From Planctomycetia bacterium (GTDB taxonomy: Bacteria > Planctomycetota > Planctomycetia > Pirellulales > UBA1268): DNA of 58,805 nucleotides. The stretch covers positions 1 to 58,805 of the forward strand of contig JBAXUY010000006.1 in NCBI GenBank assembly GCA_037129475.1, read 5' to 3'. The position numbers were made by a program, and so were the translations under genes. Numbering within the stretch: position 1 is the stretch's first letter; each line of letters opens with the position of its first letter. The notes under the pieces are model-generated. The model was not told the origin of the DNA, did no database searches, and was given only the letters and a program-made list of their open reading frames with translations. Positions 45,380 to 47,572 of the stretch are shown here, in pieces.

Positions 45380-45488
45380 AGCGTAGCTCTCATCTCCGCG
45401 GAGCGGAATGAGTTTTTGGGAACCTCAGCGTGAAAATTCATCGGCTTGTGTTTGTGGGAACTCTCCTCGTCTTGAGTTTTTGGGAAGT
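45380..45488 (-). promoter_or_regulatory. Putative activator-dependent promoter of the giant PEP-CTERM operon with three TTCCC-N5-C(T/A)CA sites
   Basis: Minus strand TTCCCAAAAACTCA-TTCCGC-17 nt-TACGCT; extra copies at about 45446-45462 and 45472-45488. Confidence 0.6.
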
Positions 45489-45628
45489 GCCTTTGGCGAT
45501 CCCCAGCCTGCCGAATTTCCGGGATTCCAATCACGTTATCACCCACGAGCGTGCCTGGTTCGGCGAAGGGTCCTTGTCGATAAGGTCCTACGCGGCATTG
45601 TCGCACCGCACAACCACGAATCCTGCCG

Positions 45629-46141
45629 CTACTTGGCGGGAGGTGTCTTCAATCCAGACGTCATTTCGAAGCGATAGACGCCAACGCCACCGCCGCCGGT
45701 TTTTACGATGATGCGAAGCGGTGAAGTGTCCTTCTTCGTGTAGACGTCGGGGACGAAACTGCGCACGGGTACCTCGGTCGTCGTGTCATCTTCGGCAGGC
45801 GGGGGTTTTCCTCCGAAGTCGTATCCTGTTTTCATGACCGTCATCACGTATTCGCCGGCCACCGCACCAGCCAACGGTCGTCCGCCCCGTGTGGAAGTGA
45901 GGTGAAACACACCGCGCGAATCCGATCTCCCCACGGCCGGCAGTCCCTGTTCACCGATCGGCGAGATGGCCACGGTCGCGTTGTCCAACGGCTTCCCGTC
46001 CAGAAGTACTATTCCTTCAACATACTCCACGTTCGGTCCCTGCTTGCCGCACCCCACGACAGCGAGTGCGCAGATCAAACCACACCAGGCATCGACCCAA
46101 GGAGAAGACGTCCGACGTGAATGGAAACGAGAAGGAGTCAT
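45629..46141 (-). CDS. Lipoprotein with carboxypeptidase-regulatory-like domain, DUF1559 partner
   Basis: Lipobox LAVVGC; VEGIVLLDGKPLDNATV..P, SDSRGVFHL, GAVAGEYVMTV, VPDVYT...SPL. Confidence 0.8.
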   Translation of the reverse strand: MTPSRFHSRRTSSPWVDAWCGLICALAVVGCGKQGPNVEYVEGIVLLDGKPLDNATVAISPIGEQGLPAVGRSDSRGVFHLTSTRGGRPLAGAVAGEYVMTVMKTGYDFGGKPPPAEDDTTTEVPVRSFVPDVYTKKDTSPLRIIVKTGGGGVGVYRFEMTSGLKTPPAK

Positions 46142-46187
46142 GAGACCCGTCTTTCACAGCAGTCGACTGCAAGGAACAGAGCAACCG

Positions 46188-47357
46188 TCATTGATCACGG
46201 TACGTGTCTGCCCCGCGCGCCGAGCCCATCGCGCCCCAGACGCCGAATACTGACGTCCCTTTGAAATTGACGGCAGGCGTCTGGTTCGGGTCGCCTGCAT
46301 CGATAGTCTCGTTCACGAATCTGACGGACCCATCGCACATGGCCACGGTCACACCGCCCGGGTGGTAACTGCTGGCCGTCATGGCAACCACGGCTGCGTT
46401 ACTGCCGACTGAGGTGTCAAGCGAACTTGATCCACTCGCCCGAGTGCAAGCGGCAGAATTTGGCGGGAGAACGGCGTAGAAACCACAAAACCCCGCCGTG
46501 CCGTCGTACCACCGTTGGCCTTTATTTCCATCGGACTTGTTCGTGACACTGTTCGCGTAAACATCTCCTGCGAGTTCAGCCATGCAAAGGGACGCATTCG
46601 GTGACGGACCAGCTGATGTCACGGCCGGCCACGCGATGTCCGAAGCCAAGCCTGAGCGAATTCGCTTGTCACCATTTACGCCGACGGCGGCCTCGGCAAA
46701 CATGATCGTCTTCGAAGTGCCATCTGTCATCCGACCGCTCGTCATAAAATCCTGAACCGTAAACGGCGTGTTTGAAATAGCTCCCATGCCGAAGGGCCCG
46801 CGCCAAGTACCCCCCGTGTTCTTGGCAGCGTAGACATCACCGCGGTTGCAGTGGTAGTTGGTGTCTCCAAGCACGCCATTTCCCGATGCCCCGAAACCGC
46901 CGTCGGACGGGCACTGCAGAATCTTGGGCTGCTGCCGCATCGGGTTGTCGGTGGCCGACGAGCTGCCGCCCCAGCCAGCGACGGCTTTCACGCAGATGGC
47001 GTCATATAAAGCCGTTTCTTCGCAGAACGGCATGACCCGCGGCAAACAACCGAAATACCACCAGTTGCTGTCCGATGACGTTCCAGACATCCCGTTGGCG
47101 ATGTATTGATTTCTCCAGCGGATATCGCCGATTCCAGGCGGGAACTGCCGTGAGGCAGATTCGAGGCTCAAAACGCCGAGCGAGATTTGCTTCAAATTGC
47201 TCGAACACTTCGCGCGTCGGCCCGCTTCACGGGCCGACTGCACTGCGGGCAGCAACAGTCCGACAAGCACGCCGATGATCGCAATCACGACGAGGAGCTC
47301 CACCAACGTGAACCCCGTAGGCGCACCCCGGAAACGAGTCGTGGGACGACAGAGCAT
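46188..47357 (-). CDS. DUF1559 family prepilin-type protein
   Basis: [69 protein letters not shown]; start ATG 47357. Confidence 0.93.
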
Positions 47358-47454
47358 GGCCAATTCCCTGATGGCGAGCGATACGAACACAATGGCCGGA
47401 AGGGGGTGCAAAACCACAGCCTCTCCGAGTTCACCGCTCCACCCAACCAATTCG

Positions 47455-47497
47455 AATCTAGACTGAACCTCGCCACAGCGGAATGAGAAATTGGGAA
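47455..47497 (-). promoter_or_regulatory. Putative activator-dependent promoter of the DUF1559-lipoprotein operon, same architecture as 45380-45422
   Basis: Minus strand TTCCCAATTTCTCA-TTCCGC-17 nt-TAGATT. Confidence 0.6.
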
Positions 47498-47572
47498 GTG
47501 CGTCACGGATTCGGCAGGGGCGTTCCTGTGCGAAGGACCCCGTGAACCGCGGGCATGGCGTAGGATGACGGC

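Follow-up and report, generated by a model that had tools for sequence, protein, structure and literature searches.

XylS, RhaS, MelR and AraC, all AraC-family activators, bind asymmetric direct-repeat half-sites, the proximal one of which touches a weak -35 element of the sigma-70 type. These proteins carry ligand-binding or dimerization domains and occupy two regularly spaced half-sites as dimers. In Ralstonia, the PrhA–PrhR–PrhI system transmits a surface signal through an anti-sigma factor and an extracytoplasmic function (ECF) sigma factor to the AraC-family regulator HrpB, whose hrpII/PIP (plant-inducible promoter) box keeps a constant spacing to a -10-like hexamer; the steps of this cascade are spread over several operons with intermediate regulators. 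Pairs of ECF sigma and anti-sigma factors are also found in the glycan-utilization loci of Bacteroidota. We describe here a 14-base promoter element, referred to below as the box, in a 58,805-nucleotide stretch of DNA from a Planctomycetia bacterium (GenBank assembly GCA_037129475.1, contig JBAXUY010000006.1, positions 1–58,805; the whole stretch is termed the window). The box precedes genes for a giant PATR/PEP-CTERM protein and for a DUF1559 protein, which belong to families that are among the most expanded and least understood in Planctomycetes, and it is probably bound by a small AraC-family protein encoded at 49877–50278.

A published account of SoxS (PMC9638938) describes a monomer that binds an A site and a B site, with recognition elements GCAC and CAAA, respectively, and a class II soxbox centred at -41.5 next to a non-optimal -35 element. 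Our literature search found no description of a sigma/anti-sigma/AraC operon and no paper that relevantly links ECF sigma factors, anti-sigma factors, AraC proteins and Planctomycetes, or that joins PEP-CTERM, DUF1559 and Planctomycetes. The search likewise returned no regulator or promoter motif for DUF1559 or PATR/PEP-CTERM genes and no useful planctomycete promoter consensus. AraC is not mentioned in the main text of the ECF reclassification paper or in the part of its supplement that was covered (PMC7826278).

The shared promoter pattern in the window

The initial annotation had reported that two promoters about 2 kb apart share TTCCC-N5-CTCA, TTCCGC, a 17-nt spacer and TAnnnT, that their spacers are mostly different and that two more copies of the repeat lie upstream of the first promoter. 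All of these sequence statements are correct on the minus strand. The elements of the two promoters, which we call A and B, are listed below with their scores from a scan of the window together with the related loci introduced in the next section.

45473–45486, minus strand: box A3, TTCCCAAAAACTCA, distal, starting 64 bp upstream of the A1 start; 25.7 bits
45447–45460, minus strand: box A2, TTCCCACAAACACA, middle, starting 38 bp upstream of the A1 start; 19.1 bits
45409–45422, minus strand: box A1, TTCCCAAAAACTCA, promoter-proximal, before the PATR/PEP-CTERM gene; 25.7 bits
45403–45408, minus strand: poor -35-like hexamer TTCCGC adjoining box A1
45380–45385, minus strand: -10-like hexamer TACGCT, 17-nt spacer after TTCCGC; predicted start near 45373
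47484–47497, minus strand: box B, TTCCCAATTTCTCA, promoter-proximal, before the DUF1559 gene; 22.2 bits
47478–47483, minus strand: poor -35-like hexamer TTCCGC adjoining box B
47455–47460, minus strand: -10-like hexamer TAGATT, 17-nt spacer after TTCCGC, upstream of the DUF1559 ATG (47357); predicted start near 47448

The end of the TACGCT hexamer of promoter A lies 57 nt upstream of the giant gene's ATG (45323), and box B sits in the divergent intergenic region between the DUF1559 gene and a beta-helix gene. The 17-nt spacers of the two promoters are unlike each other. When both strands of the window were searched, TTCCCANNNNCNCA was found four times, always on the minus strand (45409–45486 and 47484–47497), against an expectation of 0.40 ± 0.55; none of 100 dinucleotide shuffles reached four matches. 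The 20-mer TTCCCAANNNCTCATTCCGC, which consists of the box and TTCCGC, was found with up to three mismatches allowed at the two promoter-proximal sites only, both of them exact (expectation 0.16; two matches were reached in one of 100 shuffles). TTCCGC-N17-TANNNT has three exact matches in the window, namely promoters A and B and a site at 28881–28909. In a position-weight scan of the window the four box copies scored 26.9–30.7 bits and the next best site 13.3. The pattern shared by promoters A and B is not due to chance.

A canonical sigma-70 scan of 45000–52200 gave one site, within the DUF1559 coding region, versus 1.0 expected, and did not call the box promoters. An Rfam search of the 5' leaders of the target genes gave no match. 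A degenerate second box 37 bp upstream of box B (TTCGCACAGGAACG) was considered by eye, as were weak upstream box-like copies in two of the related loci (L002 and L006), and each has too many mismatches to claim. We also note that TTCGAA directly follows both -10 hexamers in the window (45374–45379 and 47449–47454, minus strand), the spacing differing by one base. It is absent from the four box promoters of other genomes and was treated as a local coincidence.

The AraC-domain protein and the box in related loci

The initial annotation had proposed that the box is read by the AraC-domain protein encoded at 49877–50278. This open reading frame (ORF) is real, with a Pfam HTH_18 match at E = 8.4e-21. 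The genes around the boxes and the regulatory operon are as follows.

51945–54593, minus strand: SASA-type carbohydrate esterase
51288–51809, minus strand: ECF sigma factor (NCBIfam TIGR02989, Rhodopirellula/Verrucomicrobium family; 131.8 bits, cutoff 124.55)
50275–51291, minus strand: anti-sigma-like membrane protein, 338 amino acids (aa), without a family match in the Pfam and NCBIfam scans
49877–50278, minus strand: AraC-family protein, 133 aa, Pfam HTH_18
47573–49786, plus strand: beta-helix protein
46188–47357, minus strand: DUF1559 / prepilin-type N-terminal H-X9-DG protein, first gene behind box B
45629–46141, minus strand: small protein downstream of the DUF1559 gene, a lipoprotein by eye; its carboxypeptidase-regulatory-like matches are weak and below the Pfam cutoff
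38166–45323, minus strand: giant PATR-repeat protein, 2385 aa, gene behind boxes A1–A3
37211–38200, minus strand: second DUF1559 protein

The PEP-CTERM match of the giant protein scores 17.6 bits, which is below the Pfam cutoff of 20.7. The second DUF1559 gene is probably co-transcribed with the giant gene, because its ORF overlaps the end of the latter. Within the regulatory operon the sigma stop overlaps the anti-sigma ATG and the anti-sigma stop overlaps the AraC ATG, both junctions reading ATGA; the AraC gene is therefore the third gene of the ECF sigma operon.

The AraC protein consists of a DNA-binding domain with two helix-turn-helix (HTH) motifs and lacks any sensor or dimerization domain (HTH_18 at residues 40–119, and HTH_AraC twice, in Pfam). 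Residues 15–124 align with MarA (1BL0), RamA (7BEF) and the DNA-binding domains of XylR and AdpA. Its NCBIfam scores are far below every equivalog cutoff (RamA 43.8 against 180, SoxS 32.5 against 174 and MarA 27.3 against 202). A word search yielded three close homologues besides the window's own, with 69–72% identity, on contigs of 660–1148 bp which hence carry no gene context.

Related loci were sought by a genome-contig scan with a five-sequence anti-sigma alignment, which returned eight loci (L001–L008) from planctomycete metagenome-assembled genomes (MAGs) out of 138 pattern matches. Together with the window they amount to 160,311 bp, and all box and regular-expression scans were confined to this set. 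Sigma and anti-sigma genes are present in all eight loci (tblastn), and the anti-sigma proteins of the genomes with box promoters are 42–57% identical to that of the window (tblastn). An AraC gene directly follows the anti-sigma gene in six (L001, L002, L003, L004, L006 and L007). In the other two, L005 and L008, tblastn found no AraC match at E ≤ 1e-5, and a DUF1559 gene is present instead. In each of the seven AraC-bearing loci, the window included, there is a 4-nt overlap between the anti-sigma stop and the AraC ATG, which is preceded by GGAGG or a one-base variant. Counted from a conserved MIxG start, the orthologues are about 131–139 aa long. At 11017–12570 of L001, the closest of the related loci, the AraC ORF runs in frame and without a stop into a DUF1559 ORF (517 aa in total); this is either a real read-through or fusion, or else an internal start, at an ATG about 20 codons or less from where the AraC domain ends.

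The box recurs in the AraC-bearing loci with the family consensus TKCCMAWWWNCTCA, at the following places.

L001, 6977–6990, minus strand: target promoter, TTCCCGTTTTCTCA-TTCCCG-17 nt-TACCTT, with a gene for a 1888-aa PATR/PEP-CTERM protein behind it
L001, 7017–7030, minus strand: second box copy, 40 bp upstream of the copy at 6977–6990
L002, 3443–3456, plus strand: target promoter, TGCCAAAAATCTCA-TTCCGG-17 nt-TAGTTT, with a gene for an 865-aa PATR/PEP-CTERM protein behind it
L006, 7696–7709, plus strand: first target promoter, TGCCAAAAATCTCA-TTCCGG-17 nt-TAGTCT, with a gene for an 868-aa PATR/PEP-CTERM protein behind it
L006, 10488–10501, plus strand: second target promoter, TGCCAAAAAGCTCA-CCTCCG-17 nt-TATTTT, with a DUF1559 gene behind it
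L002, L003, L004, L006 and L007, about 91–210 nt before the approximate sigma start, same strand: box upstream of the sigma operon, TTCCAAAAACCTCA, TGCCAAAAACATCA or TGCCAAAAACCTCC; 16.6–24.6 bits

In all six target promoters, from four genomes, the box ends exactly 23 nt before TAnnnT (6 nt plus 17 nt), although the spacers are divergent. The -35 hexamers TTCCGC, TTCCCG, TTCCGG and CCTCCG match TTGACA at no more than two of six positions. If transcription starts 7 nt after the -10 hexamer, the box is centred at about -42. Among ten aligned sites, positions 1, 3 and 4 (T, C and C) and 11, 13 and 14 (C, C and A) are invariant and positions 6–9 are A/T-rich. The box is asymmetric and non-palindromic, with two conserved blocks about one helical turn apart.

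The occurrence of the box follows that of the AraC gene. Sites of at least 16 bits are found in all seven AraC-bearing contigs versus neither of the two AraC-less ones (40.8 kb), in which the best score is 13.2 bits for L005 and no site reaches 11 bits in L008. Every site of at least 16 bits lies either near the sigma/anti-sigma/AraC operon (within about 4 kb in L006 and at 2.4–4.5 kb in the window) or a short way before the sigma gene of that operon. The top off-target scores are 15.9 (L007, position 924, the reverse complement of an ECF -35 element), 15.4 and 15.0. When the matrix was derived from the six sites outside the window alone, A1, A3 and B came out as the three best sites of the window, at 20.0 bits versus 14.5 for the next. 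The degenerate pattern TKCCMNNNNNCTCA has 13 matches in the set, three of which fall within coding regions and look like chance; 200 shuffles gave 4.3 ± 1.9 matches and never more than 11.

These data also bear on whether the box is a regulatory site at all. It could be a generic promoter feature, an A-tract resembling an UP element joined to an extended -35 for the housekeeping sigma, and the A/T-rich centre of the box does lie at about -44 to -40, where the proximal subsites of E. coli UP elements are found. However, the box occurs at two promoters only among about 36 long ORFs of the window and is absent from the second PATR/DUF1559 cluster of the window (22875–29137), and each box of at least 16 bits in the whole set lies beside an AraC-bearing module. 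Furthermore, it is the GC-containing flanks TKCC and CTCA that are kept across the ten sites, while the A/T centre varies (AAAAA, AATTT, GTTTT), and the extra copies lie far upstream of the core promoter. Within the 160 kb covered, a generic element, which the initial annotation had named as a possible refutation, thus appears very improbable. We regard as extremely improbable a further reading, that the similarity is a functionless relic of a promoter duplication or a small repeat element. The resemblance of A2 and A3 beyond the 14-mer (19 of 24 positions by eye) is what a local duplication would give, and the genes behind A and B come from families that often duplicate. Against this, the box and its 23-nt distance have been kept in six promoters of four genomes in which the spacers have diverged, and the box is neither palindromic nor dispersed.

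The ECF promoter and the proposed relay

The regulatory operon has a promoter of its own, of a different kind.

51852–51881, minus strand: ECF-type promoter of the regulatory operon, TGGTTTATTT ... GCGTCATACC, with -35 TGGTTT and -10 GCGTCAT

A conserved motif of this type, a GTTT-type -35 followed after about 10–13 nt by a GCGTCAT-type -10, precedes every sigma gene. In L002–L004 and L006–L008, which have the group-2 ECF promoters, it reads GGTGAGTTT(T), about 10 nt and (G)CGTCAT, the -10 of L008 being a CGACAT variant by eye; L001 has TGGTTC...GCGTCATACC and L005 has GTTTGTTTTT...GTGTCAA. A regular expression for the ECF architecture matches upstream of eight of the nine sigma genes, the ninth (L008) having been recognized by eye, and at seven further places in the 160 kb. 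Its matches in the window are at 51879 (the sigma gene), 46562 (inside the DUF1559 coding region), 38811 and 31641; none was found at the box promoters. One of the further places is at 10128 in the AraC-less L008, where GAGGGTGAGTTTT-N10-TGTCAT stands directly before the DUF1559 gene, which has no box; the other six look like chance. In the AraC-less L005 the DUF1559 gene begins about 25 nt after the anti-sigma gene and looks to be part of the sigma operon. Where AraC is missing, the target would thus be driven by the sigma factor directly or lie inside the sigma operon, and where AraC is present the targets carry the box and a sigma-70-type -10.

As a candidate ECF promoter the box was ruled out, since the sigma factor's own conserved promoter differs from it and the box promoters end in TAnnnT. 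A sigma-54 reading, examined by eye, was also rejected: TGGCACG occurs in the reverse complement of the L002 box, but TTGC is missing at the right distance both there and in L006, and the window has no TGGCAC. There is a looser version of the ECF reading, in which the neighbouring sigma factor reads the box promoters directly, alone or with AraC, and the box or its reverse complement serves as an unusual -35. The sigma gene is only 4–6 kb away, and control of neighbouring genes is the usual role of ECF sigma factors. Read in reverse complement, the box (TGAGTTTTTGGGAA) is similar to GTGAGTTTT, the -35 of the group-2 ECF promoters, and on the plus strand site B reads TGAGAAAT-N9-CGTCAC, facing the beta-helix gene at 47573, which could be coincidence or a second, divergent use of the site. 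Several observations nevertheless make this reading decidedly unlikely. The TGGTTT and GCGTCAT elements of the window's ECF promoter are absent at the box promoters, all six of which have TAnnnT and not CGTC as the -10. Read on the plus strand, A1–A3 are directed into the 3' end of a convergently transcribed gene, with no CGTC at a constant spacing, and up to three direct-repeat boxes are unlike a -35 element. Finally, L008, with the same sigma family and no AraC, has a plain ECF promoter and no box at its DUF1559 gene.

A more serious question is whether the box, as a true conserved regulatory site, is read by another DNA-binding protein encoded elsewhere, the AraC protein having other targets. 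Conservation, position and gene context would look alike for any dedicated regulator, the link between protein and DNA is indirect, and the AraC-less negative controls amount to just two loci. We nonetheless consider another regulator unlikely. No classical DNA-binding regulator other than AraC is conserved in the module, and the box tracks the AraC gene. The architecture of the box, with two blocks around an A/T-rich middle, asymmetric, in direct repeats and beside the -35, suits an AraC monomer with two HTH motifs. In addition, protein and box vary together between the groups of loci. The second HTH (FRHxEYMSVAF) hardly changes among ten AraC orthologues, and neither does the 3' half of the box (CTCA). 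Elsewhere the loci fall into two groups: the window and L001 combine CILF or ATLF after the SRRWL of the first HTH with a 5' box half of TTCCC, and L002–L004, L006 and L007 combine DGQF after SRRWL with TGCC or TTCC. This parallel variation fits AraC reading the box, as weak but consistent support. L001 and L007 come from the same MAG, and that genome therefore has one cassette of each kind.

The assignment of the box to the AraC protein that the initial annotation had made is thus favoured by co-occurrence, by the fixed 23-nt geometry and by the difference from the ECF promoter. Beyond that annotation, the AraC protein is now seen to be a DNA-binding domain only and the third gene of a coupled operon, and in the AraC-bearing loci of group 2 (L002–L004, L006 and L007) the box is also present upstream of that operon. 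Some points weigh against the assignment. The nine contigs are not independent, L002 and L003 being near-identical and L006 and L007 likewise, and discovery was partly circular in that the non-window boxes were found with a window-derived matrix, although their gene context and -10 distance played no role in finding them. The sigma-operon boxes of L004, L006 and L007 are weaker variants (16.6–17.6 bits), the proximal box of L001 reaches only 15.6 bits and L004 shows no PATR target within 1.3 kb after AraC. A GAG at spacer positions 7–9 (about -23 to -21) in five of the six box promoters is not accounted for by the model; it lies at 45394–45396 and 47469–47471 (minus strand) in the window and at the same place in L001, L002 and L006, with GGAG at positions 6–9 in four of the six. 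The likeness of the reverse complement to the group-2 -35 noted above counts here too. Activation rather than repression by AraC is suggested by the poor -35 alone.

The middle gene of the operon belongs to a family with 776 representative clusters at E ≤ 1e-3, 15 of them at E ≤ 1e-30. An AlphaFold model from a 14-sequence alignment (mean predicted local distance difference test score of 75.5) predicts N-terminal helices of the anti-sigma type, a low-confidence middle, in which one membrane-spanning segment was read by eye, and a beta-sandwich at the C-terminus. In the Protein Data Bank, Foldseek matched the sandwich best to the Fbs1 sugar-binding domain and to the carbohydrate-binding modules (CBMs) CBM22, CBM61 and CBM27, with E values from 3e-7 to about 7e-5 and TM-scores, normalized by target length, of 0.46–0.64. 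The protein looks like an anti-sigma factor with an outer domain resembling CBMs, and its signal may be a glycan.

In our view, the boxes are probably binding sites of the AraC protein, which would act as a class II activator downstream of an ECF cascade. The membrane anti-sigma factor would release the ECF sigma factor on a signal, possibly a glycan, and the freed sigma would fire its own promoter at 51852–51881, giving more sigma, anti-sigma and translationally coupled AraC. As the AraC protein appears from its fold to have no sensor domain, its level would be set by its own operon. One AraC monomer on the box near -42 would then recruit RNA polymerase with the housekeeping sigma to the poor -35. 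Its binding would turn on the giant PATR/PEP-CTERM gene with the downstream DUF1559 gene, as well as the pair formed by the other DUF1559 gene and the small protein, with A2 and A3 as auxiliary upstream sites. Control would thus be relayed from the ECF sigma via AraC to sigma-70-type target promoters, and positive feedback would come in addition from the box that lies before the ECF promoter in the AraC-bearing group-2 loci. A more far-reaching version combines a glycan-sensing anti-sigma, an autoinducing ECF sigma and a coupled MarA-like AraC relay to the PATR/PEP-CTERM and DUF1559 promoters, with the relay as an evolutionary insertion that rewired an ECF regulon and with the paralogous cassettes of L001 and L007 insulated from each other by a first HTH and a 5' box half that have changed in concert. 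As a whole, we can put this version forward only tentatively, as a possibility that leans towards the doubtful.

Surroundings and comparison with described systems

The window has a G+C content of 65.7% and contains genes for PSCyt1/PSCyt2/PSD1, DUF1501 and DUF1559 proteins. Its second PATR cluster, on the plus strand, comprises a PATR giant (22875–27623), a DUF1559 gene (27653–28696) and a carboxypeptidase-regulatory-like gene (28709–29137), and adjoins a convergent LuxR-type response regulator and histidine kinase (29154–31619). Because there is no box there, this cluster is probably under a different regulator. A glycine riboswitch (Rfam RF00504, 60.8 bits, E = 3.8e-10) lies at 8646–8757 (plus strand) in the 5' part of a long ORF with GcvP domains; since it is inside the ORF, the true gcvP start must be downstream of 8757. 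A large rhamnosidase/GxGYxYP protein is encoded at 11823–17105. At 3–6879 there are microcompartment-type genes (class II aldolase, EutN/CcmL, acetate kinase and the PTAC phosphotransacylase), which match the planctomycete fucose/rhamnose microcompartment set.

Among the related loci, L002 carries a gene for a PIN-domain toxin (Pfam PIN, E = 1.8e-12) and, upstream of it, a small partner gene; the two occupy 2709–3430, between the AraC gene and the box promoter and on the other strand. By eye, the same insertion appears to be present at about 6950–7640 in L006 and from about 2950 to the contig end in L007. Inspection by eye also showed a sequence of about 27 nt, GCCCGAGGCGTGAGCCGAGRGGATGCC, that is repeated, in direct and inverted form, in intergenic regions of L001 (about 9260–9380), L002 (about 530–570), L006 (4760–4860 and 10420–10460) and L007 (about 840–900). 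It is unrelated to the box, at some sites comes between the upstream box and the ECF promoter, and looks like a dispersed element of the repetitive extragenic palindromic (REP) type. L005 (CAZODJ010000009.1) is filed as a Candidatus Kuenenia MAG, and has 66.5% G+C and the DUF1559 and ThuA genes typical of the other loci. The G+C content of anammox genomes is much lower, and the assignment may be a binning error.

When compared with the sites of XylS, RhaS, MelR and AraC, the boxes are similar in being asymmetric direct repeats with the proximal copy adjoining a weak -35. Unlike those regulators, the protein described here has no ligand-binding or dimerization domain, and its sites are irregularly spaced (26, 38 and 64 bp in the window and 40 bp in L001). 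The proposed path from anti-sigma and ECF sigma to an AraC activator, with a direct-repeat box at a fixed distance from the -10, is like the Ralstonia cascade, but sigma, anti-sigma and AraC form a single translationally coupled operon here and the AraC protein has a DNA-binding domain only. The sigma/anti-sigma pair resembles those of the Bacteroidota glycan loci and of the planctomycete DUF1559 loci under plain ECF control (L005 and L008) in lying near carbohydrate-active genes (SASA esterase, beta-helix and BNR_4), in its CBM-like outer domain and in its autoregulatory-type promoter. The difference lies at the target: in L008 it carries the ECF promoter itself, whereas in the window and the six AraC-bearing loci it carries the box with TAnnnT, as would follow from the insertion of a further relay step.

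If the model is true, the locus is a compact natural case of an ECF sigma factor passing control to a sensor-less AraC protein, which bears on the rewiring of ECF regulons and on the building of orthogonal regulatory parts. The box, the candidate activator and the anti-sigma factor as a candidate glycan sensor would together provide an experimental handle on the function of the DUF1559 and PATR surface proteins.

The system has most in common with MarA, SoxS, Rob and RamA, in that a small AraC-family regulator made up of the two-HTH domain alone is probably paired with an asymmetric two-block site. As at the class II promoters of SoxS (PMC9638938), the box would be centred at about -42, as judged from sequence alone, with a poor -35 and a good -10, and as with MarA and SoxS, activity would follow the amount of protein and not a ligand domain. 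The differences lie in the details. The consensus TKCCMAWWWNCTCA does not have the GCAC...CAAA arrangement given there for the marbox/soxbox (PMC9638938), and the protein falls below the MarA, SoxS and RamA cutoffs. Upstream control is by an ECF sigma and anti-sigma factor in the same operon and not by MarR or SoxR, the targets are surface proteins and not stress or efflux genes, and there are up to three direct-repeat copies per promoter. Taken together, the system probably resembles class II activation of the MarA/SoxS type, with a box that is neither a marbox nor a soxbox.

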